Assembly: GCA_964402565.1 (NCBI GenBank)
Contig: CAYOCJ010000001.1
Span: 32,079 to 96,078 of the forward strand
DNA length: 64,000 nucleotides
Reading direction: 5' to 3'
From: an uncultured Gammaproteobacteria bacterium
GTDB taxonomy: Bacteria > Patescibacteriota > Patescibacteriia > UBA1558 > 2-01-FULL-52-15
The notes beneath the pieces were generated by a model that ran no database searches, was not told the origin of the DNA, and saw only the letters and a program-made list of their open reading frames with translations. Made by a program: the position numbers and the translations under genes. Position 1 is the stretch's first letter; each line of letters starts with the position of its first letter. Below, one piece after another: positions 4,049-58,818 of this stretch.

Positions 4049-4063
4049 TGGTTACGAATAACT

Positions 4064-4193: not shown

Positions 4194-4312
4194 GTTATCC
4201 CTTGGAAGCGTATGGTCAATTGGAAGATGTAATATTCCCATCGATAATTTCAAGCACTGCAATCTCGAGGTCGCTTTTAAATATACTTTTTTGAAATTTC
4301 CATTTTACAATT

Positions 4313-4753: not shown

Positions 4754-4880
4754 AACCCAGTTTTAGACTGAGGCTTTATGACGGGTGGCGTCGCCACGTT
4801 CTACGTGGCTTTACGGAGTGGCAAACTCCATTTGACGCTTTATTTACAACACAAAACCCACCTTTTAGAGGTGGGTCATC
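4748..4880. repeat. Mosaic island repeat, copy C (module order permuted relative to copies A and B)
   Basis: Contains gggtggcgtcgccacgttctacgtggctttacg followed by gcaaactccatttgacgctttatttacaacacaaaacccaccttttagaggtgggtca. These are the same blocks as in 6096-6200 and 8264-8365, but in the opposite order. Confidence 0.6.
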
Positions 4881-5009
4881 AATTAGGTTTTGATTTCAAA
4901 TGGGCGGTTTTCGGAAGTATTGATCTTGTATACGAAAAGGAAATAGATATAGCTTCGGAAACGATTATTCGTTTGCCGGAAATCACTTTTGCTAATCCTC
5001 CAAAGAAAA

Positions 5010-5061
5010 ACGCCGCGTGAGCTTGTAAGCTTTTGACGCGGCGTTAGGTTATTCTTTTTTT
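5010..5061. terminator. Intrinsic terminator-like hairpin (acgccgcg...cgcggcgt) flanked by an A-run and a T-run; plausibly bidirectional
   Basis: Stem of about 8 bp with an inner palindrome agcttgtaagct, followed by a T-run (ttattcttttttt). Confidence 0.4.
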
Positions 5062-5266
5062 AGGAGAGATGTGCGAATTTTTGGATACACATACTCTCCT
5101 GGTTGTTCCATGCACCATCCTTCTGGGGAGCCAGCTGGCGTAATCGGGTCTCTCAGCCAAGGGAAGAGTATTAAGAGACAATCCCTTAAGCCCTCCTTAT
5201 AGACGACAAGTCCACTATGAGCAGGGTTCAAGAATTTAAATTGTAAAACCGCTTTTCAAGAGGGTT

Positions 5267-5986
5267 TTACGAACTTTGTAGAATCTTCAACGTACTTATG
5301 AGTTGTTCAATTGTTGGATCGAAGCTTTGTTGAGGTTTGCGCATTTCGTCCATAAACCAAGCTTTCGCTGCATCAAGATCGCCGCTGTCACCTGAAAATG
5401 GTGTAAATCCTCCTTCGGTAATAATGAGGTTTGGGTACTGTTGATTTGCTAAAGGCACTAGATAGTTGTATCCAATGTCAACAGAAAGGATATTAGTTAG
5501 CACACAATACTGGAGTACTTTCAACCCATTCAAATCTATAACCTTCGGAACTGACACAGCTGCGATGGTACCTGAACTCTTCATGATAGCAGTTTTGAGA
5601 TCTTCAGTAGACTTTTTAAGATCAAGCGGTTTTGCTAGACTGTTGTTCGTATTGCTGTTAGGAGCCTCAATCGTAAGATAGGAATGGGATCCAACTTTAT
5701 CAACCGTATCCATTATCAGCCACAACCCCACTGTCCTACCTCCATTGTCTTTACTGACTAATCGGGTAATTGATACATTAGGCGGATGTCTAAACTCAAT
5801 GCCAAGTTCTTGATCCTGATACTTAGGCCATAAGGATGTATCTGTAATGTCAATCAGGTTTGCAGTATTTGTACCTGTTATCTCCGAGGGCTTCCATTTG
5901 TTTACACATATAAGCGCAACGAAAATAGACACTCCTATCACAAGAATGAAAAGTATGAATAAAAGTAGTTTTGCATTATATTTCAT
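5267..5986 (-). CDS. hypothetical membrane-anchored protein (island cargo)
   Basis: N-terminal TM helix (LLLFILFILVIGVSIFVALICV) then a soluble domain. No family recognised. Confidence 0.45.
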   Translation of the reverse strand: MKYNAKLLLFILFILVIGVSIFVALICVNKWKPSEITGTNTANLIDITDTSLWPKYQDQELGIEFRHPPNVSITRLVSKDNGGRTVGLWLIMDTVDKVGSHSYLTIEAPNSNTNNSLAKPLDLKKSTEDLKTAIMKSSGTIAAVSVPKVIDLNGLKVLQYCVLTNILSVDIGYNYLVPLANQQYPNLIITEGGFTPFSGDSGDLDAAKAWFMDEMRKPQQSFDPTIEQLISTLKILQSS

Positions 5987-5995
5987 ATGTACCCA

Positions 5996-6025
5996 ATTCT
6001 AACAGCACAAGATAAACTCTGTCCA
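5996..6025 (-). promoter_or_regulatory. sigma70-like promoter on the minus strand (TGGACA-N18-TAGAAT); the -10 ends about 10 nt before the ATG of the 5267..5986 gene, implying a leaderless mRNA
   Basis: Read on the minus strand: tggaca gagtttatcttgtgctgt tagaat tgggtacat ATG. The -35 hexamer lies inside the repeat module. Confidence 0.35.
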
Positions 6026-6235
6026 GCGTCGTCGCGACGGCTTTAATTTAGAGTTCAAAGTCCTTCTAGGGGTGCATATATTTTCTACTTTTTTGGCAAA
6101 CTCCATTTGACGCTTTATTTACAACACAAAACCCACCTTTTAGAGGTGGGTCATTGTGAAGGGTGGCGTGGCCACGTTCTACGTGGCTTTACGCCATGGG
6201 GCGGCTACCCGCCCGCCGGCAGGGATGAAAAACTG
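6021..6235. repeat. Mosaic island repeat, copy B (about 190 bp, nearly identical to copy A at 8191-8385)
   Basis: Only about 4 mismatches to 8197-8385 over roughly 188 bp. Contains the palindrome gtcgcgac, the hairpin cccacctttt agaggtggg, cgtggccacg, and gccatggggcggctac, which is identical to the 3' end of tRNA-His. Confidence 0.7.
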
Positions 6236-6244
6236 ACAAATCTA

Positions 6245-7189
6245 CTAGGCCACCGTATTTGAGTCGGCAGCTTGTATTTGTGGAGTTGATTTTTTGAGGC
6301 AGATCTTGCTGAAGAAGTAAAATAAGTAGATCGCTACAATATCCTGAATCACAAATGAGATTAGATCTATTGTTTTTGGCGCTGCTCCTGGTTTAGAGGG
6401 GTTTATCATGCCAACGATCGCTAAAAGTATACTGGCCAAGATAAGCATACTATAATATTTGGTGCTTAGTTTGACTACTTCTTGATTATTTTGTGTTGTG
6501 AAATGTTGATTGACAAAAAAGTGCGCCGAAGTCCATATTCCCAGCCACATAAGTAATGAATGCGTGATAAGTACAAAAGCTATTTGCAAGATTTTATTCT
6601 CAATTTGAATACCGTTCGTAAAAAAATCTACAGTAGAGCCTGGATGTATAACCCCTAGAGCTAGTAGAAGTCCTCCAAGTGCAAAATAGAAAATTGGGGA
6701 CACAAAACTCAAAAACATAAGCAATGAAAACACGTGAATGCTCGCAAGATATTTTGCAGGCTTTTTCTTGGATATCGAACCAGTTGGCGCATAGGGTTTT
6801 GCATAAGCCCGGTTAAAATAGATCGTAAAAAATAACGCAAGAATGATTACGAGTGCAATTGTTCCGACGCCCATTAGTAGGGAGGCTTTTTGTACATAAA
6901 CTCCTTGCTGAACATATCCAGACTTTGTTGCCATAAAAACAAAGAGACTAAAGATAGCAGCCACTAACAACTGCGTAATCGAAAAGAGCGTGAGAGAAAA
7001 ACGACTGCCTTGCACTGAGGTATAGAGTAACGACAGAAGAAGACAGGTGAAAAAGATACTTAATACTATCGCCGCGAGAACAACTTCACCACCGAAAGTT
7101 TTGAATAGAAGTCCATCGAGAAAGAGAAGGTAGGCACAATACAATACGATGAATATGGTATTTTTTTTCATGCATATAGTATAACACAA
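6245..7189 (-). CDS. hypothetical polytopic membrane protein (about 8 TM; island cargo)
   Basis: 314-aa ORF, strongly hydrophobic throughout. No conserved motif recognised. Confidence 0.45.
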   Translation of the reverse strand: MCYTICMKKNTIFIVLYCAYLLFLDGLLFKTFGGEVVLAAIVLSIFFTCLLLSLLYTSVQGSRFSLTLFSITQLLVAAIFSLFVFMATKSGYVQQGVYVQKASLLMGVGTIALVIILALFFTIYFNRAYAKPYAPTGSISKKKPAKYLASIHVFSLLMFLSFVSPIFYFALGGLLLALGVIHPGSTVDFFTNGIQIENKILQIAFVLITHSLLMWLGIWTSAHFFVNQHFTTQNNQEVVKLSTKYYSMLILASILLAIVGMINPSKPGAAPKTIDLISFVIQDIVAIYLFYFFSKICLKKSTPQIQAADSNTVA

Positions 7190-7193
7190 AACC

Positions 7194-7268
7194 CACCTTT
7201 GAAGGGTGGGAATTTGTGATGGGGCGGCTGGATGAGAAGGTTGGGAAACTTTTAAATTATTATAGTTT
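7194..7268. repeat. Mosaic island repeat, copy E (hairpin core plus the ggatgagaaggttgggaaactttta module)
   Basis: acacaaaacccacctttgaagggtggg then atggggcggct then gatgagaaggttgggaaacttttaaatt. Shares blocks with copies A, B and D. Confidence 0.55.
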
Positions 7269-7356
7269 TGTGCGACGATTGTTCAGCATAAATTATTCAT
7301 ATCGCCTGATCAAACCCGTTGACTAAGTACTCATCTGACATTTCAAATCCCATTGT

Positions 7357-7962
7357 TCATTTGAAATTAGAATTCATTACAGGCGAGAATTCCGCAAGTT
7401 TTGAGATATCGCCACTTATTTTTTCAAAAATACAAGCCCAGCTTCTTTGCAGAGAAGGAAGTGATCGCTCAACTTCTATGAGTTTTCCTGCCGCTTCCAT
7501 TCCGAAGATATGGATATATCCTGCTCCGGCAAGAATATTTACCAAAATATGCTCCTGCACTGCCAGCTCTTCTCCGCTGAATTGGTGGGCAATAGGATTC
7601 CATAGTTTCTCTGCGGTCGTATTATTCGCGAAGTAACCAAAAAAAGTATGACACAGCTCATGAAGCACAACGGAGGCGGCGTGATCCAAATCCTGATCAA
7701 TGAAAAAAGTCAGTGGATCATTGAACGGGATAATCCCTTGCTGGCGATGCACAGGATAGGCAAGCCAAAAATCAGCTAGCGTCAAACCTCTTGCAGCATA
7801 GAATGCAAACACTTTATCATTTATCTTTTTCCAATGTGTCCCGAACTCAGTCGCGAAGCGCCAGCCTTCGGTCACAGCATCTTTAGATAACAAAACACCA
7901 ACCTGGGAAGCAAGTGTGCGGTCATAGATAGGTGAATAGCGAAAGTATAATTGTGTTGCCAT
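7357..7962 (-). CDS. HExxH-motif protein, putative zinc-metallopeptidase-like (island cargo)
   Basis: Contains VVLHELCHTFFGY (HExxH) in a cytoplasmic-looking 201-aa protein. Family not identified. Confidence 0.4.
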   Translation of the reverse strand: MATQLYFRYSPIYDRTLASQVGVLLSKDAVTEGWRFATEFGTHWKKINDKVFAFYAARGLTLADFWLAYPVHRQQGIIPFNDPLTFFIDQDLDHAASVVLHELCHTFFGYFANNTTAEKLWNPIAHQFSGEELAVQEHILVNILAGAGYIHIFGMEAAGKLIEVERSLPSLQRSWACIFEKISGDISKLAEFSPVMNSNFK

Positions 7963-7985
7963 ACTGAAATGAGTTTACTGCATTA

Positions 7986-8111
7986 TTATAAAAATGAGTA
8001 GAGCCCGGGATTCCAGTGATGGAACCCCGGGCCCCGGCCGACGAACTCGAAACCATTGTCACTAACAGGATAACCGTAAGTGATGACCAACGGCCGCGAG
8101 GCTTTATTCAT
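7986..8111 (-). CDS. unannotated small ORF (41 aa, MNKASRPLVITYGYPVSDNGFEFVGRGPGFHHWNPGLYSFL) with a strong Shine-Dalgarno sequence, directly upstream of the HExxH gene
   Basis: GGAGAAAGGAG lies 6 nt upstream of the ATG. Below the 60-aa cutoff of the ORF track. GC-rich hairpin (gcccggg...cccgggc) inside its 3' half. Confidence 0.3.
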   Translation of the reverse strand: MNKASRPLVITYGYPVSDNGFEFVGRGPGFHHWNPGLYSFL

Positions 8112-8168
8112 AACTCACTCCTTTCTCCTCAGATTCGTGAAAGATGTCAAAAAACGATTTGACTTGTT

Positions 8169-8197
8169 ACCATAGAAGGACTTCGAGAATGCGTCAA
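8169..8197 (-). promoter_or_regulatory. sigma70-like promoter on the minus strand (TTGACG-N17-TATGGT) upstream of the small ORF and HExxH gene
   Basis: Minus-strand reading: ttgacg cattctcgaagtccttc tatggt. The -35 lies at the edge of repeat copy A, at the same relative position as the -35 in copy B. Confidence 0.3.
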
Positions 8198-8385
8198 GCG
8201 TCGTCGCGACGGCTTTAATTTAGAGTTCAAAGTCCTTCTAGGGGCGCATATATTTTCTACTTTTTTGGCAAACTCCATTTGACGCTTTATTTACAACACA
8301 AAACCCACCTTTTAGAGGTGAGTCATTGTGACGGGTGGCGTGGCCACGTTCTACGTGGCTTTACGCCATGGGGCGGCTACTGGGA
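8191..8385. repeat. Mosaic island repeat, copy A; overlaps the 3' end of tRNA-His
   Basis: About 98% identical to 6021-6213. In minus-strand orientation it supplies a hairpin plus T-run (cccacctctaaaaggtggg ttttgtgtt), i.e. a terminator immediately 3' of tRNA-His. Confidence 0.7.
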
Positions 8386-8443
8386 ATCGAACCCAGGCAT
8401 CTAGGACCACAACCCAGTGTTCTGCCATTAAACTATAGCCGCC
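8369..8443 (-). tRNA. tRNA-His (anticodon GTG) with a genomically encoded G-1 and encoded CCA
   Basis: Reverse complement gives G-GCGGCTA TA GTTT AATGGCA GAAC A CTGGG TTGTGGT CCTAG ATGC CTGGG TTCGATT CCCAG TAGCCGC C CCA. Cloverleaf is canonical, with the extra 5' G pairing C73. Confidence 0.85.
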
Positions 8444-8492
8444 ACGTAAAGGTTCCTACGGAACCCACGTGGCTGGCCAGTATATTTGCCGG

Positions 8493-8786
8493 CTACGTCG
8501 ATTCCTTAGTCTTCCTAGGTTTGTTTTGAAAGTGAAATTTTAATTGATGATCTAAGTATTTTTCCCCTCGTCCGCTTTTCAAGAACTTTTCTCTTCCTAG
8601 CGCATCATCTTTTATAGTATATGCTTCATAATAAATCAATTGCCATGGTTTTTTTGAGACCGTTGAATTGTTGAGCCCTGCATTGTGTTCTTGTAGCCGT
8701 TTTTCAATATTTTCTGTAAACCCTGTGTATAGAGAGTCATCTGCTTCACTTTGTAAAATGTACACAAAATACATAATCTTTTTCAT
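8493..8786 (-). CDS. GIY-YIG nuclease-superfamily protein (UPF0213/YhbQ-like)
   Basis: MKKIMYFVYILQSEADDSLYTGFTENIEKRLQEHN... shows the GIY-YIG motifs (YVYIL...LYTGfT...R..EHN). Start chosen at the internal Met because the longer ORF would run into tRNA-Arg. Confidence 0.65.
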   Translation of the reverse strand: MKKIMYFVYILQSEADDSLYTGFTENIEKRLQEHNAGLNNSTVSKKPWQLIYYEAYTIKDDALGREKFLKSGRGEKYLDHQLKFHFQNKPRKTKEST

Positions 8787-8823
8787 TTCTGGCTGCGCCA
8801 CGTGCTTGCGCAGCAAGTATACG

Positions 8824-8898
8824 TGGTGCCCCCGGAGGGAATCGAACCCCCATCTCAGGCTTAGAAGTCCCAAGCTCTATCCATTGAGCTACGGGGGC
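8824..8898 (-). tRNA. tRNA-Arg (anticodon TCT), encoded CCA; anticodon stem unusually weak
   Basis: Reverse complement: GCCCCCG TA GCTC AATGGATA GAGC T TGGGA CTTCTAA GCCTG AGAT GGGGG TTCGATT CCCTC CGGGGGC A CCA. The loop CTTCTAA is the canonical Arg-UCU loop. The stem TGGGA/GCCTG has only about 4 pairs including two G-U. Confidence 0.6.
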
Positions 8899-8943
8899 TC
8901 AATTTTAAAGCACGCATTACCATACCATCGGAAAACGCCATTG

Positions 8944-9333
8944 TCAATCCTTTTTAGCCGATTTTCTCGAGGTTTTCTGTAATTGTTGCAAGGTATCAAG
9001 TCCCAGCATTGCACATTTCTCTCGGGCGCCAGTTACTTTGATGCCGAGTAATTTTTCTATGCTTTTTTTATCAAGCTTTTTGATGCCGGCAAAAGATTTT
9101 CCTAAAGCATATTCTCCGATCATAGAAGCTGCCGCAGTGCTTACCGCGCATCCTTCACCGCTGAACGCAAGATCAACGATCTTTCCGCCTTTAATGATGG
9201 CCTGGAACTGCACCTGATCTCCGCAGCTGATATTCGCATGGCCTGCACTATGGGTAGCGTTCTTTAAAACGCCGAAATTCCGCGGGCTGCGGTAATGGTC
9301 GAGTATTTTATGGCGATAGAGTTCTTCTGACAT
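8944..9333 (-). CDS. sufU: SUF-system Fe-S cluster scaffold protein SufU/IscU-like (NifU family)
   Basis: ILDHYRSPRNFG...ISCGDQV...GEGCAVSTAAASM shows the NifU/IscU-type Cys motifs. Immediately downstream of sufS. Confidence 0.7.
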   Translation of the reverse strand: MSEELYRHKILDHYRSPRNFGVLKNATHSAGHANISCGDQVQFQAIIKGGKIVDLAFSGEGCAVSTAAASMIGEYALGKSFAGIKKLDKKSIEKLLGIKVTGAREKCAMLGLDTLQQLQKTSRKSAKKD

Positions 9334-10546: not shown

Positions 10547-11236
10547 TTATGCTTTTTTCACCAGCACCCAGTTGTTCATATACATAAAGGGAATTGAAAT
10601 GACGCCGACGACCCATTTGACCGTTGCCTGCCCGATCATGAGCGGAAGGAGCGGCATGGTGCCGCCGAATGCAATGGCGATAAAAATGACAGTATCGACG
10701 GTAAGCGAGGGAATAGAGCTGAATACATTTCGCGCCCATAGATGCTTGTCATGAGTCGCTTTCTTGAACCAGGCAAAAATATACGCATCCATATTTTCTG
10801 AAACGAGGAATGCGATCCAGCTTGCGATCGTGATGCGCGGTATCGAAGAGAAGATCATTGACCACGCGCTTTGCAATGTCCAGAATGAGGCGGGCTGCAT
10901 CTGCACGCTGAGCCAGAAAAAAAGCGATGTGGCCACTTGCGAGACAAAAGCAAGTACGATCATTTGCTGTGTTGCCTGGCGTCCGAATTTTTCGTTCACA
11001 ATATCAGTCAGCAAAAATGTTATCGAGAAAATGATAACGCCGCTGGGACCTACGAAGGTGGCAAAACCAAAATCAAATGCAGCGATCTTGACTGCAAGGA
11101 TCTGAGCAATAAGAATGAATGTTACATAGAGCGCGATCAGCAGGTCCGGTTTTTCATATTTTCGTGCATAGAGGCTGCCGAGCAAGGTAAAGCATGCTAC
11201 GCCGCAGATCCAAATGAGGAGCAAGGTTGGGCTCAT
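10547..11236 (-). CDS. queuosine precursor transporter, YhhQ/DUF165 family
   Basis: About 6 TM segments. LTDIVNEKFGRQATQQMIVLAF resembles the YhhQ signature (hydrophobic-E-x-x-G region). Confidence 0.55.
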   Translation of the reverse strand: MSPTLLLIWICGVACFTLLGSLYARKYEKPDLLIALYVTFILIAQILAVKIAAFDFGFATFVGPSGVIIFSITFLLTDIVNEKFGRQATQQMIVLAFVSQVATSLFFWLSVQMQPASFWTLQSAWSMIFSSIPRITIASWIAFLVSENMDAYIFAWFKKATHDKHLWARNVFSSIPSLTVDTVIFIAIAFGGTMPLLPLMIGQATVKWVVGVISIPFMYMNNWVLVKKA

Positions 11237-11239
11237 GTT

Positions 11240-11944
11240 TTATGTTTGTTCGATTAAACTAGAAAGTTTTTTTCTCAAAGCTCTCTCTAGGATACCACGT
11301 TCATGCCCGTCAGGTAAGTGAGCCAGCTGTGAGACAATAAATGCATCGAGAAGTAAAGCGATGCTGTCAGATTTTCTGAAGCCGCGCGTTTGCAGATAAA
11401 ATAATTCTTCTTCAGAAAGACGGGCGATAGTCGCTGCATGTGAAGCTTTCACATCGTCAGCTTCAATTTCTAAATTTGGTATAGTCTCGGCTTTAGCCAA
11501 TGGAGAAAGTATAAGCACGCGTTCTTCGAGTCGCGCATCTGACTGCTGTGCTTTTTTCAAAATATGGATGGTGCCGTTCAATTTTCCGCGCGATGCATTG
11601 CCAAAGACGCCGCGGAGGATGATGCGGGACGTTGATCGTGGCTTTTGGTGTTCAGCAATGATATTCGCGATCAAATCATCTTTGCCTCCTCCAAGAACAA
11701 TGCCATGCACCATGACGGTGCTTCCGGCAGCAAGTTTGAAATGCACGGTTCTTTCTTTTGCCCTTGATAGCCCCAAGGCCATGATATAGATCACGCCTAT
11801 ATTTGGAGCTATAGAAATGGTGCTTTTTTTCAGTGGCGATTTCCAGTCCAGCAAGACCGATTGTTTAGCCACTTTGAGGCTTTTTGTCCTCACTGAGGTA
11901 ATAAGCATCTTTATAGTGTATATCATTAAGGCTAATATTGACAA
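11240..11944 (-). CDS. sufD: SufD-like Fe-S cluster assembly protein (short form)
   Basis: C-terminal ATIARLSEEELFYLQTRGF matches the SufB/SufD C-terminal motif. Start codon uncertain; an internal Met at about 11908 is possible. Confidence 0.5.
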   Translation of the reverse strand: MSILALMIYTIKMLITSVRTKSLKVAKQSVLLDWKSPLKKSTISIAPNIGVIYIMALGLSRAKERTVHFKLAAGSTVMVHGIVLGGGKDDLIANIIAEHQKPRSTSRIILRGVFGNASRGKLNGTIHILKKAQQSDARLEERVLILSPLAKAETIPNLEIEADDVKASHAATIARLSEEELFYLQTRGFRKSDSIALLLDAFIVSQLAHLPDGHERGILERALRKKLSSLIEQT

Positions 11945-11982
11945 AAATGGCTAAATATAGTATATTCCTCGGTTCTCGTTTT

Positions 11983-12002
11983 TTGAAAAATCGTGTGGTT
12001 TT
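11983..12002. repeat. 20-bp perfect direct repeat ttgaaaaatcgtgtggtttt (copy 1)
   Basis: Identical 20-mer recurs at 13031-13050. It is about 0.004 likely by chance in 64 kb. Sits in the sufD/STAS divergent intergenic region. Confidence 0.6.
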
Positions 12003-12150
12003 AGCCGCAGAGATTAGCGCTTTTTAACCAAATTGGAGCCGATATACAGCAATAGGCCAAAATGGTTGAGTTTTGATTTCTGCGGCTATAGAAAAGATTG
12101 TAGATTGCTCGGGCATTGTGCCTTGCAATTACGGACAAGTGTAAGCCGCG

Positions 12151-12693
12151 TTGGAGGCAGCGATGCCACAGAATAACAAGCAAGAGTATGAGGTACTTTT
12201 CAAGTTCTTCAGATTTTGGTTGGACATCTTCGATCGAGTCCGCAAGGGCTCGCTCGACCCCAGCGCTGTCGTGAAGGCAATACAGCCTCTTCTCGCTGCT
12301 CGGTACCAGACAGTGCCGGAGGCTCGTCTCGCAGCTACGCCGGTCATGTACGAAGAAGACGTCTGCATCATTCAGCTGAATGGCAAGATGACCTTGGATA
12401 CGGAAATAGTGTTCAACGACGCTATTGCGTATGCCTTGGTGCGAATCGAGTGCAAGAAGATCCTGCTTGACATGTCGGAGCTCTCTTATGTCGACAGCAC
12501 TGGTATCGGTGCTTTGGTAGTAGCTCACAAGAAAGCTCGCGATCTCAGTGCTGTGATCAAGTTGCTGAATCCAATCGGCAAAGTTGAGGACCTACTTCAG
12601 CTGACCAAACTCGTCGAAGTATTTCCGGTCTTCAAGGACCAAGCTGCGGCGCTCAAGTCGTTTAAAATACCCAATGTCCGTACGGACGCGTGA
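12151..12693 (+). CDS. STAS-domain protein (anti-sigma-factor-antagonist-like) with an N-terminal extension of about 70 aa
   Basis: C-terminal region ILLDMSELSYVDSTGIGALVVAHKKARDLSAVIKLLNP...LTKLVEVFPVF is a typical SpoIIAA/STAS fold signature. Confidence 0.55.
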   Translation: MEAAMPQNNKQEYEVLFKFFRFWLDIFDRVRKGSLDPSAVVKAIQPLLAARYQTVPEARLAATPVMYEEDVCIIQLNGKMTLDTEIVFNDAIAYALVRIECKKILLDMSELSYVDSTGIGALVVAHKKARDLSAVIKLLNPIGKVEDLLQLTKLVEVFPVFKDQAAALKSFKIPNVRTDA

Positions 12694-12923
12694 AGGAGAG
12701 ATCAATGCCTGAGATCAGAAGTCCGCATTGGAACGAGAAGGATGGTGTCTGCGAGAAGCATCTGCTTCCGCAGCTCCCGTGTCTGTCGTGTTTTGCCGAT
12801 CAAGACCCTGCCGTGGAGGTTCACTTCACGGAAATGGATCTCATCGTCGCCGAGGCCGAAGAGATCCCGCTGAGCAATCTGTTGCCGGTGGGTCAGGAGT
12901 GGCTGCTCAAGAACGTTGTCTGA
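12690..12923 (+). CDS. small hypothetical protein with a Cys cluster (C-x9-C-x2-C)
   Basis: Stop/start overlap with the STAS gene. Likely true start at MPEIRS (12705). Contains GVCEKHLLPQLPCLSCF. Confidence 0.3.
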   Translation: MKERSMPEIRSPHWNEKDGVCEKHLLPQLPCLSCFADQDPAVEVHFTEMDLIVAEAEEIPLSNLLPVGQEWLLKNVV

Positions 12924-12944
12924 AGTTCCACACGAAAAGAATTG

Positions 12945-12980
12945 CCTAAGTGCGGTCGCGTAAACGCGGCCGCACTTAGG
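12945..12980 (+). terminator. strong hairpin (16-bp stem cctaagtgcggtcgcg / cgcggccgcacttagg, loop taaa) after the first island sub-operon
   Basis: 15 of 16 positions pair. No classic T-run follows, so it may be an RNA stability or processing element rather than a pure terminator. Confidence 0.4.
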
Positions 12981-13030
12981 ACTCTTTCCTAGTCTCCCAC
13001 TGTTGTTGTGTGAGATTGAGAATTGGTTCA

Positions 13031-13050
13031 TTGAAAAATCGTGTGGTTTT
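13031..13050. repeat. 20-bp perfect direct repeat ttgaaaaatcgtgtggtttt (copy 2)
   Basis: Identical to 11983-12002. Lies about 30 nt upstream of the next plus-strand gene. Confidence 0.6.
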
Positions 13051-13081
13051 TCATTTCTCGCGGCAACGCGTGGAGATAGTC

Positions 13082-13438
13082 ATGCACATCCAAGCGATCG
13101 TTTTGATGCTGACTGGCTTCAGTATTCTGGGCAGCCTGGTAAATTATTTTTCCCTGCGGTCGCTGCGTCTCAGGGCCGGCAAGATCGGGAATGCTTCGCC
13201 GCCCATACCTCTCGCCGAGCGGCGTGTGCTGATTTTGAAGATGGCCGAACGCTTCTTCATCATTCCGGCGGTCTATAATGTGATCGTTGGCGTGATCGCT
13301 GCGCTGGCAATGACGCGCTACGATTCGATCTCAGGCGCGCTGCTACGCATCTGTGCCGGATTCGCGCTTTTCATGACCTTGATGATGATCTGGGGCTACT
13401 GGCAGCTTCGGGTTGCTTGCAAGCCGGATGAAAGCTGA
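13082..13438 (+). CDS. hypothetical small membrane protein (3 TM)
   Basis: Start chosen at MHIQAIVLMLTG... No family assigned. Confidence 0.35.
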   Translation: MHIQAIVLMLTGFSILGSLVNYFSLRSLRLRAGKIGNASPPIPLAERRVLILKMAERFFIIPAVYNVIVGVIAALAMTRYDSISGALLRICAGFALFMTLMMIWGYWQLRVACKPDES

Positions 13439-13445
13439 AAGGAGC

Positions 13446-13814
13446 ATGATGCCAACCGAACACCATCCGCTGCAATCGGCGATCCTCGTCCTTTGCATGC
13501 TTTCGTGGTTCACGATGGCGATAACGAATTGGATCATCACGACCTACCTTGATCTGGTGAGGAATGGTGATCTGACCATGCCGTTCGAAAAGTATCGAAT
13601 GACACGGATCGCCATGGTTCAGAATCTGTCGATCGCAGCCGCGGGGATCAACGTCGTGGTGGCTTTGCTTTCGATTTTCGCGTGCATCTTTCGCGAATAC
13701 CCCCTGGTTTCGCCAGCACCAATTGTCGCGGCCATAAGCCTTTGCGCCATGGCGGCGCAAAGGTACTTCATACGATGGGCTTTCAATCGGAATCCACGGA
13801 GGACGACATCGTGA
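13446..13814 (+). CDS. hypothetical small membrane protein (3 TM)
   Basis: Start at MMPTEHH, preceded by gaaaggagc. Paralogous in architecture to the preceding gene. Confidence 0.35.
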   Translation: MMPTEHHPLQSAILVLCMLSWFTMAITNWIITTYLDLVRNGDLTMPFEKYRMTRIAMVQNLSIAAAGINVVVALLSIFACIFREYPLVSPAPIVAAISLCAMAAQRYFIRWAFNRNPRRTTS

Positions 13815-13872
13815 GATCCATGAAACAAATGCTCAAGTTCATCTACTCGATGGAGTGAGAAGGAGATGATCC

Positions 13873-14100
13873 ATGTCTAAGCCGAGAGTGTTCAAAGTCT
13901 CCCGTAAAACATTTGAGATCATGCACGGCATTTGCTTGAATTGCGGGCAAACGCATTTGGGCAATGACAAGCTGGACGAAAGCCGCTTGGACTGCCTGAA
14001 ATGCGGCGCTCGTGCCGTTCGTGCTTTGCCTGAGGCTCTGCGCATGGGCCGCGTGAAGATCGTGGAACAGGAACCGGAATCCGAACTCACCGAAGATTAA
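13873..14100 (+). CDS. zinc-ribbon protein (CxxC-x15-CxxC)
   Basis: GICLNCGQTHLGNDKLDESRLDCLKCGARAV; 75 aa. Confidence 0.45.
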   Translation: MSKPRVFKVSRKTFEIMHGICLNCGQTHLGNDKLDESRLDCLKCGARAVRALPEALRMGRVKIVEQEPESELTED

Positions 14101-14111
14101 AGGAGGCGCCG

Positions 14112-14264
14112 ATGAGAAAATTCTTTTTTGCGATCGTTGCAGCCCTCAGTAAGGCTCTCCGGCAATTGCCTGTTCGCCAGAATCACGCGGTTGCCGCAGT
14201 CGGCGACCTCCCTGAGGACGATGTCTACAACTCCGACATGGAGCAACACAAGTTCGGGGTGTGA
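14112..14264 (+). CDS. unannotated small ORF (50 aa) with a signal-peptide-like N-terminus, translationally coupled to the zinc-ribbon gene
   Basis: AGGAGG begins immediately after the upstream stop codon, then ATG. Reads MRKFFFAIVAALSKALRQLP... Confidence 0.3.
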   Translation: MRKFFFAIVAALSKALRQLPVRQNHAVAAVGDLPEDDVYNSDMEQHKFGV

Positions 14265-14309
14265 TCGATCACTGAGCACCAGGTTGAGGCCTGAACCACA
14301 CGAAAAAGA

Positions 14310-14344
14310 GTCCGGAGCGCGCAGCTATGCCGCGCGCTCCGGAC
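14310..14344 (+). terminator. very strong hairpin (13-bp GC stem gtccggagcgcgc / gcgcgctccggac) ending the first island transcription unit
   Basis: Perfect 13-bp stem with a 9-nt loop. Followed by ccactctttgtcc (weak U-tract). Confidence 0.45.
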
Positions 14345-14404
14345 CCACTCTTTGTCCATCATCTTTGCGGAAACGCAAAAATGGTGTACAGAGATATGGG
14401 TTCT

Positions 14405-14447
14405 TTGACAAACCTGGCGCAAGCCAGCTTTCCTACCCGGACGGGTA
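14405..14447 (+). promoter_or_regulatory. TTGACA -35 element followed by the perfect palindrome tacccggacgggta (candidate operator) upstream of the second island sub-operon
   Basis: ttgaca aacctggcgcaagccagctttcc tacccggacgggta atgggcggatgcccaaggaggg then GTG start. No obvious -10 at canonical spacing, so the palindrome may overlap the -10 region. Confidence 0.3.
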
Positions 14448-14472
14448 ATGGGCGGATGCCCAAGGAGGGATC

Positions 14473-14928
14473 GTGCTCGATCGTTTCTTGTCTCAAAGTG
14501 ATCGGAACGCCAAAGCGCAGCTCAGGCTCTTCACGGAGTTCTGGTGGCTGTGGGCGATCAAACAACATTGGCGGCTGGGTTTCGATACCATGATGGTGTC
14601 GAATACTCAGAACGGCTTGTTCAGCGCTCTTTTGGGTACGTCAGATCCGACGACCGAGTTGTGGATCGTGAAGCGCCTCATGGATGCCATGGGCGTGGAA
14701 CGAGTTCCGTACAAACACGGCAAAACGGTCGGCGAGATGCTCTACGCATCTCTTGCCTCCACAGCACCAGGAGCCAAGGTGCTGTACGTGGTTGCGTGCT
14801 CTCCCTCGCGCCCTGAGGGAGCCAAAACCTATGTCATCTACCGTCCGAAAGAAGGCTCAGACGCTTTGGTCGAGGATCTCTTCGACTACCAACTGTCCCG
14901 CGAACGCGCGCACGAGGTGACCCAATGA
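14473..14928 (+). CDS. hypothetical protein (151 aa), GTG start after GGAGGG
   Basis: No motif recognised. Its last codon overlaps the start of the following STAS gene (ATGA). Confidence 0.4.
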   Translation: MLDRFLSQSDRNAKAQLRLFTEFWWLWAIKQHWRLGFDTMMVSNTQNGLFSALLGTSDPTTELWIVKRLMDAMGVERVPYKHGKTVGEMLYASLASTAPGAKVLYVVACSPSRPEGAKTYVIYRPKEGSDALVEDLFDYQLSRERAHEVTQ

Positions 14929-15353
14929 AAATGACGTACAAGAAAGTGAATAACATCGCCATTCTGAAGATCGAGGGCGACGTCATTATCGGCGTTGCGC
15001 CCAGACTCGACGTTCTCGGCGCTCTCCGTAGCAAGATGAGCGACTTCATCAACGGCGGTGTGAAAGCCGTGCTGTTGAATGTCAGCGAGCTTGGTACAGC
15101 CGATTCGGCATTCCTGGGCGAGGTTGCAGGTTCGCTCAGCATGTGCCAGAAGCAAGGTGTCGGGTTCGGACTCGTAGCCCCTGCGGGTCCCTTTGCCAGA
15201 CTCATCGACACTACCAGGTTCGTGACTCTTCTTCCTGTCTTTAAGGATGACGAAGAGGGGCTCGCGAGCTATGCGCTGCTCCCCGACAAGCAAGGCTCAT
15301 TCGGCCCGAGTGGCGACACGGATCCGGACGGATTTCACCATCTCGACGGTTAG
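14925..15353 (+). CDS. STAS-domain protein (second copy in island)
   Basis: IAILKIEGDVIIGVAPRL...AVLLNVSELGTADSAFLGEV...VTLLPVFKDDEEG shows the SpoIIAA-like pattern. Confidence 0.5.
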   Translation: MKMTYKKVNNIAILKIEGDVIIGVAPRLDVLGALRSKMSDFINGGVKAVLLNVSELGTADSAFLGEVAGSLSMCQKQGVGFGLVAPAGPFARLIDTTRFVTLLPVFKDDEEGLASYALLPDKQGSFGPSGDTDPDGFHHLDG

Positions 15354-15361
15354 GAGGAGGC

Positions 15362-15811
15362 ATGTCGCGCGGAACCAAGTCACAGAAAGGCGCCCCGACC
15401 GTGGCAGGTGAGCTGGATCAGATGCATCAGGGCTTCGAAGAAGACGACAAGGAGCTGAACGCTCTTTTCTTCGATCTTTGCGCTGATGAGAATGACTTTC
15501 CTCTTCGCGACGAGCCTGCGCATCGCAATGACCCAGGCAGTTGTTACGATGACGACTACGATTTTCCGGGCATCGAGGTCTTGCCTCGAGAGACGGAATC
15601 GCCGACGAATGAAGTGCCCGAGGTACGCGAATCTCTTTCGGGAGGAGGTGCTCCACCGAGCACCCCGTATTCTCGTTGGCGCGCGCTGAGGCTCGTGTTG
15701 TTCGTCTTCGTGCTTGACTGCTGGATCATCTGCAGCATCTTTTTCAACAACATGGCAGCGTTGCTCGGCATCGAAGGGTACACGCGTCAGCCGTATCGTT
15801 GGCCGGATTAG
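15362..15811 (+). CDS. hypothetical protein: acidic N-terminal region, C-terminal TM helix
   Basis: Asp/Glu-rich first 100 aa, then RALRLVLFVFVLDCWIICSIFF. Confidence 0.35.
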   Translation: MSRGTKSQKGAPTVAGELDQMHQGFEEDDKELNALFFDLCADENDFPLRDEPAHRNDPGSCYDDDYDFPGIEVLPRETESPTNEVPEVRESLSGGGAPPSTPYSRWRALRLVLFVFVLDCWIICSIFFNNMAALLGIEGYTRQPYRWPD

Positions 15812-15819
15812 GGAGCTAC

Positions 15820-16251
15820 ATGAAAAAACTCACCCTGATCTTGCCATTGGCTTTGCTGCTGGTCTTGCTAGCAGTTCCTTCGACGGCGATCACCGATCGC
15901 GCTGCTTTCTCAGCTGTGTTCGGTCTGAGTCCCCGAGGGTCTGATCGCGAGGTTGCGCAGCTTGCAGTGGACCTGGAGTTGAGCGAACTCGCACGAACCA
16001 CCTTTGAGCTATCGCAGCAGTATGCGCGCATGCAGATCGAGCAAAGAAGCTCCAAGGACGATGAGCTGCGCGCAGGGGTGTACCGCGCCAACATTGCCCG
16101 GCTGAAAGAAGCCGTTCGGCTAGCCCAGAAATACAACTTCGAGGTCCCGGTAGAGCTCTTCGAATTCATTCAAACGCTCGAGGAGTTCAACCAAATCCTC
16201 GGAAGGTATATTCAGAGACCGCTTCCGCAATCCCAAAAGGAGGGCGCTTGA
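15820..16251 (+). CDS. hypothetical secreted protein (signal peptide MKKLTLILPLALLLVLLAVPSTA)
   Basis: Start at the MKK preceded by GGGAG. Predicted helical mature part. Confidence 0.4.
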   Translation: MKKLTLILPLALLLVLLAVPSTAITDRAAFSAVFGLSPRGSDREVAQLAVDLELSELARTTFELSQQYARMQIEQRSSKDDELRAGVYRANIARLKEAVRLAQKYNFEVPVELFEFIQTLEEFNQILGRYIQRPLPQSQKEGA

Positions 16252-16697
16252 AGTATTTCTGCATCACGAAGGCGAAGGATCTCGCACTTCCTGACCGTGC
16301 GTGCATCGCGAAGCTTCTCACCGAGTTTGCGGGCCGTCCGATCGTGTTGACAGTCAGCGAGGTGAATAGCTTCTTCCGCAGCGGGCTGTTGTTCATGGCA
16401 GAGGACACCGATCTGCCGCGCGGTGAATCCATCATCGGCGTCGGTTCGCTGGTCATCAAGAACTTGCTCACGGGCAGGTCCGCGCGGATCGAAGATGTCT
16501 TTCTCCTCGAGCAGTACCGCGGGCGCGGCATCGGACGCGAGTTAGTCCAGCACATGATCGACGAAGCGCGGAGCCTCGGCGTTCGGCACATCGACCTCAC
16601 CAGCAGGCCGGAACGGGCTGCCGCGAACAAGCTGTATGTGCAGCTCGGCTTCGAGAAAGGCGTCACCAACGTCTATCGCCTGGACCTCAGGCGTTGA
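16248..16697 (+). CDS. GNAT-family N-acetyltransferase
   Basis: LEQYRGRGIGRELVQHMIDEARSLG...AANKLYVQLGFE matches acetyl-CoA binding motif A (Q/R-x-x-G-x-G/A) and motif B. Confidence 0.6.
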   Translation: MKYFCITKAKDLALPDRACIAKLLTEFAGRPIVLTVSEVNSFFRSGLLFMAEDTDLPRGESIIGVGSLVIKNLLTGRSARIEDVFLLEQYRGRGIGRELVQHMIDEARSLGVRHIDLTSRPERAAANKLYVQLGFEKGVTNVYRLDLRR

Positions 16698-16706
16698 AGG
16701 AGAGTT

Positions 16707-17003
16707 ATGACAGAAAAACGTGACAAGCGCTCTCTGTGGTGGCTGCTGAGGGTGTATTGGCTGGACGGAACTTTCGCTGACGCGCTTTCAACAGCGATGC
16801 TCGCATTCATCCTCATCACGATCTACAACGTGTGCTGGGCGATGTACTTCAATGCATTGTTCAGGGTTCTGGTGTTTCGTGAGTTGAAAGTTGCCGCTAC
16901 CATCCTCGCGCTGCTCGCTGTCTTCGGCATTCCGGCGCTTTTGAGGGCGCGGCGACAGTGGCGCCAGGACTACGATGTCTATCTGCGGCCGAAGCAGATC
17001 TAG
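16707..17003 (+). CDS. hypothetical small membrane protein (2 TM)
   Basis: Last gene of the island before the terminator. Confidence 0.35.
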   Translation: MTEKRDKRSLWWLLRVYWLDGTFADALSTAMLAFILITIYNVCWAMYFNALFRVLVFRELKVAATILALLAVFGIPALLRARRQWRQDYDVYLRPKQI

Positions 17004-17193
17004 ATGACCGACATGAGGAGCTACGCGGAAGGCTTTCCGTAGCCGACCGAAAGACCTTCAGAGGAAGCGAACACGTGTGACGCTTCTAACCGAAGGGTGT
17101 TCCTTTGATCACACGTATAAAAAGGAGATATGCCTTGAGGCAGAACGTATCGCTGATGCGGTGCTGTCGATCGGGCTTCTCGTAAACTGAAAC

Positions 17194-17246
17194 GACCTCG
17201 ATTCAAACTCTATCGAAACCGATAGGGGGCGAATCGAGGTCTTTTG
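17194..17246. terminator. bidirectional intrinsic terminator (gacctcgattc...gaatcgaggtc, then TTTTGCTTT)
   Basis: 11-bp stem. Sits between the convergent island operon (+) and the 17249..18106 gene (-). Confidence 0.6.
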
Positions 17247-17248
17247 CT

Positions 17249-18106
17249 TTATGCTGGTTGATCTTCCATTATCTTCCGTATGGCAGGCTCTTCCATGACC
17301 GCATGGCTTGCGCCATAGACAATGAAAATTCTTGATTTCGTTTTCAGATGCTCCTGGATCTTTTTTACAATATGCTCATCTCTAAATTTGCTCGATTCTG
17401 CACCGATGAGATTGATGCGAGTATAGGGGTATGATGCATCTTTCCACGGAATAGGATCATGTCGTTCTGCTGCATGTGTTGGGTCATCGACACTATAGTT
17501 ATTTGGCCAATACTTTTTTCCAATCTCTTCTAAGTGCCGCAATGAATAATCGAACCTTTCCCATTGTGTTCGTTCGACGAAATCCGACATTTGAACAGCG
17601 ACCTCAGTAGACAAGTCAGGTCTTTCGCTCATATGATGCTGTTGATCTACCTGCCGATAATAGTAGTGTGCGAAGATCTCATCCTTGCTGAATCCTTTAT
17701 CGATAAGATTTTGTAACTCATCTTTGAGTGGGGGTTCGGGAGAATCGACTTCCACTCCATGAGTTGCGGCGAGATGCGTAAGGAATCCTGATTCTCCTGC
17801 TTTCAAAATTGTGTCAGCACTTGAAAGTTTTTTTACGCGTTCGATGAATGCTGGTTCTCGTAAGCGTTCTGGATTAATGCCTTCCACCAGGACAAGATCA
17901 GGCGTCATCTGATCAAATTGAGCTTGGATGTCTGCAAATAATGGATCACCAGGATCATACGTATGTGATACGCCAAAATACGTTAGTTGTTTATCACCAT
18001 TTTCGATCGAATAATTATACGGCACATCGTGCTCGACCTGAGCATAGGCCTCAGCACTCATGATCAGATCCTTCGGATCTTGTGGTGGCAATTCTGGTGA
18101 TGACAT
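17249..18106 (-). CDS. hypothetical protein, possibly TraB/GumN/Tiki-superfamily
   Basis: N-terminal LTYFGVSHTYDP and C-terminal RIFIVYGASHAV resemble the two GxxH motifs of the TraB/GumN (Tiki) family. Weak call. Confidence 0.3.
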   Translation of the reverse strand: MSSPELPPQDPKDLIMSAEAYAQVEHDVPYNYSIENGDKQLTYFGVSHTYDPGDPLFADIQAQFDQMTPDLVLVEGINPERLREPAFIERVKKLSSADTILKAGESGFLTHLAATHGVEVDSPEPPLKDELQNLIDKGFSKDEIFAHYYYRQVDQQHHMSERPDLSTEVAVQMSDFVERTQWERFDYSLRHLEEIGKKYWPNNYSVDDPTHAAERHDPIPWKDASYPYTRINLIGAESSKFRDEHIVKKIQEHLKTKSRIFIVYGASHAVMEEPAIRKIMEDQPA

Positions 18107-18110
18107 ATGT

Positions 18111-22279: not shown

Positions 22280-23044
22280 TTAAGGCTGCGAAGCAGCGCG
22301 GGCATGTTTGATACTGCGCGCGGTTATGGAATTTCCTTGTCCTGCTTTCCGACTTTTCTTTTGTACCAGGCGTTGAATAGAACGCGTGCTGATCCGCGAA
22401 GCTGCTGCTCTCTTTGTCTTGGCGCGGTCATGACTCGTAAAAAGGTAGGGAATCTGATCAGTACGCTGTTTCAGATATTCCGTGATATAGAAAAGGGTAT
22501 GGTTATTCAGCTGAAGCGTCCGTTCGCGCCTCCCGGCTACAAAAAGTTTCTTTTTTTTGGCATCAAAGTTTTTGACCAGCAGTTCTGTTATTTCCTGCAG
22601 GCGTATATCGCTTCCCCAGAGCAACTCGAGCATGGCACGATCTCTCGACACAAGGATAGAAGCCGCCTCAGACCTCTTTTGATCAGCGAGCAATGAGGCT
22701 ACTGCTCGCTCGGATGGGACAGCGGGGGCATGGTATCGAACTGGCTGCAGTTCAATGCGCCGGTAATCTATACGGCGTTCAGATTGCGGCAGCCATCGCA
22801 AGAAACTTCGCAATGCGATGAGGTGATAATTGATCGTTGTACTCTGCAATTTCGCTGATGCAAGCTCGCTTTGGAATTGTTGAACCTTCTTTCCTGTTAT
22901 ATCGGCGGTTGAGAGAATATGGTGACCTCGAAAAAATCTATTCAAATAATCTCGGTAATGAGCAATGGTCAAATCGGCGCTGCCCTTAGACCGTTTGAGG
23001 TAGCTTGCGAATTGACTGAGCGTTGCGTCTATGGAGCGTGCCAT
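22280..23044 (-). CDS. tyrosine recombinase XerC/XerD-like, apparently C-terminally truncated (ends just after the H-x-x-R box; catalytic Tyr region absent)
   Basis: N-terminal SAM-like core-binding domain (LSQFASYLKRSKGSADLTIAHYRDYL), catalytic Arg region (AMLELLWGSDIRLQEI), and ...ARSIKHARAASQP then stop. Confidence 0.45.
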   Translation of the reverse strand: MARSIDATLSQFASYLKRSKGSADLTIAHYRDYLNRFFRGHHILSTADITGKKVQQFQSELASAKLQSTTINYHLIALRSFLRWLPQSERRIDYRRIELQPVRYHAPAVPSERAVASLLADQKRSEAASILVSRDRAMLELLWGSDIRLQEITELLVKNFDAKKKKLFVAGRRERTLQLNNHTLFYITEYLKQRTDQIPYLFTSHDRAKTKRAAASRISTRSIQRLVQKKSRKAGQGNSITARSIKHARAASQP

Positions 23045-23676: not shown

Positions 23677-24180
23677 ATGATAGTAAAACACAAAGAACAG
23701 AGGGTCGGAGTCTTCGTGGATGTACAGAATATGTACTATTCTGCGAAGAATTTATATCAAGGCAAGGTGAATTTTGGCGCTCTTTTGACGCATGTGGTCG
23801 CCGGACGCAAATTGATACGCGCGACAGCCTACGTGATCCGCGGACCGCAATCAGAGGACGATCATTTTTTTACGGCACTTGAGAAGCAGGGCTACGAGAT
23901 CAAGGCAAAGGATCTGCAGGTATTTGCCGGCGGCACCAAAAAAGGGGACTGGGATGTAGGCATTGTCATTGATGCGATCAAGATGTCGCGTTCAGTAGAC
24001 GTGGTAGTGCTCATCTCAGGAGACGGTGACTATGTGCCGGCAGTAGAGTATTTGCAAAATCATGGTATTTTGGTGGAAGTCGCGGCATTCGGAGAGACTG
24101 CTTCGGGCACCTTGAAGGAAAAGGCAGATGATTTCATGGATATTTCTAAGCAGCCCAAAAAGTTCTTATTACATAATTAA
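23677..24180 (+). CDS. NYN/LabA-like domain protein (predicted PIN-like RNase fold, COG1432)
   Basis: RVGVFVDVQNMYYS...ATAYVI...VVLISGDGDYVPAVEYL shows the conserved acidic residues of the NYN domain. Confidence 0.6.
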   Translation: MIVKHKEQRVGVFVDVQNMYYSAKNLYQGKVNFGALLTHVVAGRKLIRATAYVIRGPQSEDDHFFTALEKQGYEIKAKDLQVFAGGTKKGDWDVGIVIDAIKMSRSVDVVVLISGDGDYVPAVEYLQNHGILVEVAAFGETASGTLKEKADDFMDISKQPKKFLLHN

Positions 24181-58804: not shown

Positions 58805-58818
58805 CCAGTACTATCGTT

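Follow-up and report, generated by a model that had tools for sequence, protein, structure and literature searches.

Introduction

The SufBC2D system of iron-sulfur (Fe-S) cluster assembly is encoded by operons of the order sufC-sufB-sufD-sufS-sufU (sufCBDSU), which is seen in distant taxa. Genomic islands and islets are contiguous blocks of ORFan-like accessory genes that deviate from their surroundings in guanine plus cytosine (GC) content, codon usage, tetranucleotides and initiation signals, can interrupt a conserved operon, and are marked by an integrase, a tRNA target or flanking repeats. Here we describe a locus in which the two meet: a GC-rich block of twelve small genes (positions 12003-17246) inside the suf operon of a 64-kb stretch of DNA (the window, that is, the whole stretch analyzed). 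The block resembles genomic islands/islets in all of the former traits and differs from them in lacking an integrase, a tRNA target and flanking repeats. The operon, in turn, resembles other sufCBDSU operons in that sufC, sufB, sufS and sufU are in the canonical order, and differs from them in that sufD is cut to its C-terminal ~40% and three non-suf insertions are present.

Two other described systems are close to what the block encodes. Partner switching (SpoIIAA-SpoIIAB-sigmaF, or RsbV-RsbW-sigmaB with a PP2C phosphatase) combines a STAS-domain antagonist with a GHKL kinase and a sigma factor. Targets of CsrA/Rsm control are known to present GGA motifs in the loops of hairpins and a further one in the Shine-Dalgarno (SD) sequence, and the consensus obtained for CsrA/RsmA/RsmE by systematic evolution of ligands by exponential enrichment is RUACARGGAUGU. 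To our knowledge, very few regulatory RNAs have been characterized in Patescibacteria.

We read the block as a composite accessory islet of three transcription units that was acquired horizontally, an interpretation about as well supported as it is contested by the evidence set out below. As a genomic island it is ordinary biology; the more useful products of the analysis are an unnamed protein family (termed FPWLWA after its motif) with a conserved leader RNA, and a division of the genes into two classes of translation initiation. The locus also illustrates cleanly how accessory genes can land in an operon essential for Fe-S assembly, here in a reduced genome and with most of sufD removed. 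A Patescibacteria-type host is suggested by gene content (RNase Y, YmdB, a type IV secretion system pilin, many ORFans), by the way in which the FPWLWA family is distributed and by a 633-kb contig.

Composition and Translation Signals of the Block

The genes of the block are those called in a separate, independent assembly of the organism (locus L001), and Pfam and related domain scans of window proteins covered ~70 window open reading frames (ORFs). The GC content of the block was 54.6% as compared to 47.1% for the remaining window (47.8% for the whole window), a value that no other 5.2-kb stretch of the window reached and that lies ~3 standard deviations above the mean of 5.2-kb sliding windows (47.7%, standard deviation 2.3). 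An earlier note on this DNA had put the value at roughly 60%; the elevation was found but not its size, 62% being reached only at 16350-16650. The GC content at third codon positions (GC3) was 63-80% in the 12 genes of the block vs. 38-58% in the flanking suf-cluster genes, and all 12 ORFs followed the order GC3 > GC1 > GC2, a pattern typical of genuine coding sequence. When the block was compared with the other 63 window genes, the synonymous codon-usage distance was 1.08, whereas control blocks of equal size and contiguous genes gave 0.51 ± 0.12 and never exceeded 0.85. Tetranucleotide usage, normalized for base composition and compared as 5-kb windows against the rest, gave a correlation of r = 0.79 for the block in contrast with 0.87-0.96 (about 0.92) for most windows. 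The foreign-looking composition that had been noticed before was therefore seen in GC content, GC3, codon usage and tetranucleotides alike.

Translation signals, a criterion on which the earlier note had not drawn, set the block apart even more strongly. An SD sequence of the AGGAGG type, 5-8 nt upstream of the start codon, was present in 12 of the 12 genes of the block (mean free energy of the duplex, dG, -9.3 kcal/mol), as compared to a mean of -4.9 in the 63 genes outside it, which were scored by the best of all candidate starts, a bias in their favor (Mann-Whitney P = 9e-6). No SD was found at the starts of sufU, sufS, yhhQ, the sufD fragment (sufD'), sufB or sufC. Values of dG ≤ -10 occurred outside the block in exactly five genes, all five with high GC3 as well: those of a TonB_C protein (start 32003, + strand), a 193-aa ORF (start 33966, - strand), ExbB (start 39039, +), a 95-aa ORF (start 39753, +) and an ORF resembling outer membrane proteins (start 49685, +). 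The genes of this genome thus fall into two sharply different classes: most have no SD, a minority combines a strong SD with high GC3, and within this minority class the block forms the largest cluster.

Interruption of the suf Operon

The twelve ORFs are co-oriented on the + strand, antisense to suf, between a sufD-like ORF and a 285-aa ORF (p285) followed by sufB. The order of the operon and the length of SufD were compared with those in distant loci recovered by a SufB search. That the block splits the suf operon had been proposed earlier, and it does interrupt the sufCBDSU order of distant taxa; the disruption is larger than had been described. Although sufC, sufB, sufS and sufU appeared intact, sufD', the 3' fragment of sufD (11240-11782, - strand; extendable to 11944 with a TTG start), had been taken for a gene spanning 11240-11944. 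A sufD-like ORF is there, but it is not complete: it matched Pfam SUFBD_core only at profile positions 102-232, and when full-length SufD proteins (429-457 aa) of eight sufCBDSU operons were aligned, only residues ~256-455, that is, the last 170-200, found a counterpart, at 11258-11779. No remnant of the N-terminal ~255-290 residues of SufD was detected by tblastn within 11780-18110. By these alignments, sufD' is the C-terminal ~40% of SufD and the first ~60% is missing, which would imply that SufBC and a stump of SufD suffice for the organism.

The block is one of three non-suf insertions in the operon. A Vut_1/YhhQ-type transporter gene (Pfam; 10547-11236, - strand) stands between sufD' and sufS. 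The p285 gene (17249-18106, - strand), 4 nt downstream of sufB and outside the GC-rich block, is of low GC content (43%) and occupies the expected place of the 5' part of sufD; its product gave only weak TraB/PrgY/GumN matches, formed a singleton cluster and had no relative in JGI metagenomes.

The abrupt switch in composition and SD usage at both borders is also what a foreign piece joined during metagenome assembly would leave behind. We regard such a chimera as the least credible of the explanations: separate Logan assemblies of SRR12313479 and SRR12313480 reproduced the right junction (sufB, p285, and the genes of the proteins p98 and GNAT149 of the block) and the full context, proteins of the block and of its flanks are on record also from a 633-kb NCBI contig, and both borders are intergenic, with a promoter-like site at one and a convergent terminator hairpin at the other.

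Organization in Three Units

About 12 small genes in two tightly coupled transcription units had been described. The gene number held, as did the ATGA overlaps, located at 14925 (p151/STAS142) and 16248 (p143/GNAT149), and the SD sites directly after stop codons; the GC hairpins, in contrast, delimit three units (12163-12923, 13082-14264, and 14473-17003) rather than two. The remaining gaps within units are 8-11 nt, with the exception of 58 nt between the genes of TM121 and Zn75. Unit 1 is followed by a 17-bp GC hairpin (12945-12980, +; inverted repeat, 94% complementary) and unit 2 by one of 16 bp (14310-14344, +), whereas a long hairpin with 26-nt arms (17190-17245; 81% complementary) separates the convergent genes of p98 and p285.

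A consensus scan placed a sigma-70-like promoter, TTGACA-17-TATATT, in front of unit 1 (11938-11966, +), with 11 of 12 positions matching; it is a pattern match only. An 18-nt box, GAAAAATCGTGTGGTTTT, occurs as an exact repeat upstream of unit 1 (11985-12002, +) and 32 nt upstream of unit 2 (13033-13050, +), two exact copies in the window where 0.09 would be expected by chance, and it extends to a 25-nt repeat of 92% identity. An inverted partial third copy (TTCGTGTGGTT; 14294-14304, - strand) follows unit 2, and these three matches, all of them inside the block, were the only ones in the window. Because the identical box is common to both, units 1 and 2 are probably co-regulated.

Origin of the Block

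Several observations are consistent with a horizontally acquired, composite islet. Composition and SD usage are distinct, sufD is truncated, and the same junctions are present in two Logan assemblies; three hairpin-delimited units, together with FPWLWA relatives that stand alone, give the block the appearance of a patchwork. The donor would be a GC-richer, SD-using bacterium, plausibly of another Patescibacteria lineage, as hinted by the nearest relative of p151, which lies beside a STAS gene in such surroundings (locus L082). Its arrival in the suf operon would have been accompanied by loss of the 5' ~60% of sufD, and its 12 genes probably do not work as a single integrated machine.

Other observations weigh against acquisition. 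Nothing in or around the block marks it as an island: it has neither an integrase nor a transposase, no direct repeats flank it, and it lacks a tRNA target, the nearest tRNAs being >3 kb away. Since no relative without the block was found, the case for acquisition is one of composition, and the block is not the sole atypical part of the window: region 4001-9000 deviates more (tetranucleotide r = 0.475). The same high GC3 and strong SD are carried by the five scattered genes mentioned above, so that the signature could mark a gene class, such as that of envelope proteins, rather than foreign origin. The FPWLWA family is specific to Patescibacteria and the host is Patescibacteria-like; therefore p151, at least, did not come from outside the phylum. 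The host lineage may also have a short SufD of its own. As to CsrA-type control of p151, which would call for a csrA gene, none was seen in the window (regular expression, and Pfam scans of ORFs of at least 85 aa).

Much of this would follow if the block were old, native and lineage-specific, with high GC3 and strong SD denoting a class of mostly membrane or exported genes, the suf cluster rearranged and the short SufD normal. This is a real possibility that we nevertheless hold to be clearly the less probable of the two. It is favored by the envelope-type nature of the five scattered genes (TonB_C, ExbB, the outer membrane protein-like ORF and two others), by the transmembrane (TM) or signal-like segments in six of the 12 proteins of the block, by the confinement of the FPWLWA family to Patescibacteria and by the absence of mobility genes from the block. 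However, the signature extends to the soluble STAS proteins, the GNAT, p151 and the zinc-ribbon protein, and it is absent from envelope genes of the window such as LspA, the ABC-2 permease, the major facilitator superfamily transporter and DsbD_TM; tetranucleotide usage deviates even when normalized for base composition, and SufD is short by 60% as compared to all eight reference operons.

Close relatives of the organism were not recovered. SufB, SufC, SufS, PNPase and the proteins of the block that were looked up were all singletons in 90% clusters of ~15 billion proteins, the best match of SufB to GTDB species representatives was 67% identical among the matches listed, and word-index protein searches with p151 and STAS176 as queries returned self matches only.

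Short repeats of 73-77% identity flanking the block were considered as attachment sites and rejected. Past sufB, sufC and a GGDEF gene, 5 kb to the right of the block, lies the gene of a tyrosine recombinase of 254 aa (22280-23044, - strand; Phage_integrase and SAM-like N-terminal domains), probably of the XerC/D kind; nothing seen connects it with the block. Region 4001-9000 has 38-41% GC and GC3 values down to 0.26, contains four ORFs (146-314 aa) without Pfam match and adjoins a tRNA-His gene (8369-8442), a GIY-YIG gene (8493-8873) and a tRNA-Arg gene (8824-8898); this neighbor of the suf cluster may likewise have been acquired.

Proteins Encoded by the Block

Only three proteins of the block, STAS176, STAS142 and GNAT149, matched known families; two STAS proteins and one GNAT had been recognized before, and Pfam confirmed all three. 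STAS176 (12163-12693, +; Pfam STAS E = 1.9e-15; SD GGAGG 5 nt upstream of the ATG), which opens unit 1, is a STAS protein of the anti-sigma-factor-antagonist type with an N-terminal extension of ~60 aa. It passed TIGR00377 (60.4 bits, cutoff 53.45) and aligned to TM1442 and SpoIIAA with the phosphorylatable serine kept, its VDSTG being aligned with DSAG of TM1442. STAS142 (14925-15353, +; Pfam STAS 28.4 bits, above cutoff), in unit 3, is more divergent: it was 31% identical to STAS176 over 72 aa (E = 1e-9) and retains the serine (ADSAF), yet it scored under the NCBIfam cutoff. Its gene is coupled to that of p151 by the overlap at 14925.

These proteins resemble those of partner switching in that STAS176 passes the antagonist model and keeps the DSxG serine, and in that STAS142 is coupled to a protein of ~150 aa, the size of RsbW/SpoIIAB. 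The block differs from such systems in having no adjacent GHKL kinase, and in that the ~150-aa partner, p151, has no HATPase_c signature or known fold. As had been stated before, GHKL kinase/HATPase_c and PP2C phosphatase domains were missing among the scanned window ORFs, and so were sigma factor and CsrA domains.

The second gene of unit 1 encodes p72, an acidic 72-aa protein (12705-12923, +; SD AAGGAG, GC3 0.69) without match in Pfam, NCBIfam, PADLOC or PHROGs. It had been described as a Cys-cluster miniprotein, a term that hardly suits its three cysteines. A ZAS-type zinc-binding anti-sigma domain was considered for p72 and rejected: its spacing, read by eye, is Hx6Cx2C and not Hx3Cx2C, and Pfam gave no match.

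Unit 2 starts with the genes of two membrane proteins, TM118 (13082-13438, +) and TM121 (13449-13814, +), each with three hydrophobic segments by hydropathy; TM118 had no family match in Pfam, NCBIfam, PADLOC or PHROGs. Both had been called three-TM paralogs; the segments were found in each, and the paralogy had to be dropped, as BLASTP detected no similarity between them (E = 0.16). The zinc-ribbon protein that had been noticed corresponds to Zn75 (13873-14100, +), in which CxxC...CxxC can be read from the sequence and whose sole family match was a weak one to the S27ae zinc ribbon (E = 0.003). The unit ends with p50 (14112-14264, +), an ORF of 50 aa with a strong SD, AAAGGAGG (duplex dG -11.7), and GC1/2/3 of 0.65/0.33/0.65, features that make it plausible that p50 is coding; hydropathy disclosed no clear hydrophobic segment in it, in disagreement with an earlier assignment as a signal-peptide ORF. 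Units 1 and 2 would thus supply a canonical phosphorylatable STAS switch protein together with small membrane and zinc-ribbon proteins.

Downstream of p151 (14473-14928, +) and STAS142, unit 3 encodes p149 (15362-15811, +), with an acidic N-terminus and one C-terminal TM segment; p143 (15820-16251, +), with a signal-like hydrophobic N-terminus followed by a helical region, and probably exported; GNAT149 (16248-16697, +); and p98 (16707-17003, +), with two TM segments. Neither p149 nor p143 had a family match, and hydropathy agreed with the acidic TM-anchored, secreted and two-TM proteins reported before. GNAT149 is a small generic GNAT acetyltransferase (Pfam Acetyltransf_1 E = 6.4e-16, 59.1 bits vs. 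a cutoff of 20.7) whose gene has the highest GC content in the block (60%, with a GC3 of 80%); among solved structures, a diamine acetyltransferase and RimI came closest, and NCBIfam gave no assignment at equivalog level. Together with the membrane-anchored, exported and two-TM proteins, the GNAT suggests an envelope-associated output.

A compositionally odd cluster of small unfamiliar genes is also what an anti-phage defense island or a prophage remnant might look like, and a defense-like module had been proposed. One very weak match of the STAS region to an NCBIfam 'anti-phage protein' model (E = 0.0015, 17 bits vs. a cutoff of 630) could be cited in its favor. Against this, PADLOC-DB 2.0 gave no match at E ≤ 0.01 for the ten proteins compared (all but p50 and p98), PHROGs gave none for nine of the 12 proteins, BLASTN of the block found nothing among phages and plasmids, and the block contains no nuclease, ATPase, integrase or structural gene. 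Neither the FPWLWA family nor its leader motif was found in IMG/VR. We therefore consider a defensive or phage origin very unlikely.

The FPWLWA Family and Its Gene Neighborhoods

In the survey of gene neighborhoods, p151 was the only gene of the block with detectable relatives. An exhaustive HMMER search of representatives with p151 recovered 12 distant relatives (13 in one tally), and a profile built from these gave 91 matches (90% clustering). The resulting family, which we consider worth pursuing, comprises proteins of 120-200 aa without Pfam domain that share the motif EFPWLWA[IV]xxxW..G, and all members that carry a name fall within Patescibacteria (Vogelbacteria, Brennerbacteria, Pacebacteria, and Parcubacteria). 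The AlphaFold2 model of p151 had a predicted local distance difference test score of 87.9; no convincing PDB match was obtained by fold or by sequence.

The FPWLWA gene is mostly stand-alone in the ~25 loci surveyed, amid housekeeping genes (mreB, proS, secA, secY, mraZ, and dnaK). Apart from the window, it overlaps a STAS gene in one of the ~25, L082, a contig of 1.4 kb with 57% GC and SD sites that also holds the nearest relative of p151 (34% identity). In tblastn searches of the other proteins of the block against the FPWLWA loci, this one STAS was the only relative found. A set of 12 genes that travels together, as had been envisaged, is thus not what these loci contain.

These neighborhoods bear on the proposal that all 12 genes form one new STAS-centered envelope signaling system, with the FPWLWA protein taking the place of the anti-sigma kinase as STAS partner and the GNAT supplying covalent modification. 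The genes are co-oriented, tightly packed and of one composition; the two STAS proteins are alike (E = 1e-9), the p151-STAS pair recurs in L082, the 18-nt box joins units 1 and 2, and neither kinase nor phosphatase is nearby. But the set does not recur, the FPWLWA gene being solitary in ~24 of 26 loci, the tblastn searches found nothing else of the block there, and a kinase or phosphatase may sit in the remaining ~570 kb of the genome, all of which makes a single system an unlikely interpretation. Within the composite islet that we prefer, STAS142, being translationally coupled to p151, would be its probable binding partner.

A 144-aa ORF of another locus (L095) looked RsbW-like by eye and was discarded, since Pfam gave it no support; a neighboring sigma-like ORF was marginal (23.9 vs. 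a cutoff of 24). One apparent member of 259 aa (L087, 9995-10774) has a C-terminal extension of ~110 aa and a degenerate leader upstream (8.8 bits). A gene with an NYN domain (RNase-like) lies ~0.4-1.5 kb from the FPWLWA gene in L106 (Vogelbacteria; 4105-4626), L099 (4975-5532), and L100 (267-824), the latter two carrying the same FPWLWA protein; in the window, an NYN gene is located at 23677-24180, ~9 kb from p151. The two genes may be loosely associated, or their proximity may be due to chance.

A Conserved Leader RNA Upstream of FPWLWA Genes

The 40 nt upstream of FPWLWA start codons are conserved in nucleotides, whereas the proteins share only 25-35% identity. The conserved layout consists of two hairpins whose loops are nearly always GGAU or GGAC, a CAAAG linker and then AGGAGG; the loops (C-GGAY-G) are ~15 nt apart, and the ribosome-binding site, AGGAGG, contributes a third GGA ~10 nt further on. 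Conservation extends to the linker and to CCAG on the 5' side. In the window, the leader of the p151 gene (14405-14479, +) was the only match of the covariance model (61.8 bits, E = 1.3e-15). Its first hairpin, ACCC-GGAC-GGGU, lies at 14435-14446 (+), the second, UGGGC-GGAU-GCCCA, at 14449-14462 (+), and the SD, AAGGAGGG, at 14462-14469 (+). Both hairpins are backed by covariation and appeared in the minimum-free-energy fold of the p151 leader.

In a MAFFT alignment of nine leaders, 92.5% of the cells were paired and two-sided changes occurred in seven of nine pairs; when partners were slid by 1-3 columns as a control, pairing fell to 12-50%. With 17 distinct leaders, 92.6% of the cells were paired and 30 cells had double changes, in an alignment fitted to the model, which leans to structure. 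Over 211 kb (window plus Patescibacteria loci) the covariance model, which was built on the alignment of nine leaders, gave 21 matches, each directly upstream of an FPWLWA gene and nine of them (seven loci) outside the training set; the leader was also found in Brennerbacteria and Vogelbacteria loci, for a total of 23 matches in 26 loci. No match was obtained in 1.45 Mb of unrelated bacterial control loci. The leader is not in Rfam: with Rfam 15, a scan of the window at the gathering threshold returned tRNAs only, and a permissive scan of 11900-17300 (E ≤ 5) was blank at the leader. It represents a short, testable candidate for post-transcriptional control in Patescibacteria.

The p151 leader is like the leaders regulated by CsrA/RsmA/RsmE in having at least two GGA motifs, in hairpin loops and in the SD, and translation of p151 would probably be gated by this architecture, which is that of a CsrA/Rsm-type repressor target. 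It differs from CsrA-type leaders in conserving the CAAAG linker and the CCAG flank, in belonging to one gene family only and in that no csrA was seen in the window. Searches for csrA in the window and in the Patescibacteria loci were negative (regular expressions, plus Pfam scans limited to window ORFs of at least 85 aa); in ultra-small prokaryotes from groundwater, csrA is reported to be one of the highly expressed genes that were detected (PMC9938205). As judged from the leaders themselves, restriction to one gene family and a conserved linker would fit autoregulation or a dedicated partner at least as well as CsrA, and the FPWLWA protein itself might alternatively bind its leader.

A bolder combination, which we rate as improbable, is that the FPWLWA protein and the tandem GGA-hairpin leader are an undescribed RNA-protein regulatory pair found across Patescibacteria, with a leader that serves autoregulation or else marks a CsrA regulon, and that the pair was recruited here with two STAS proteins, the GNAT and small envelope proteins into a STAS module without kinase, the FPWLWA protein being the direct partner of STAS.

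Other Observations in the Window

Two tRNA calls made by ARAGORN elsewhere in the window deserve mention. The one for tRNA-Pro(CGG) (58728-58804, +), which is below threshold for the Rfam tRNA model, overlaps the 5' end of a methyltransferase-like ORF (58717-59379); the call may be a false positive, or the start of that ORF may be wrong. The other, supported as a tRNA by Rfam, is a tRNA-Ile with anticodon UAU (44770-44846, +), an uncommon means for bacteria to read AUA codons.

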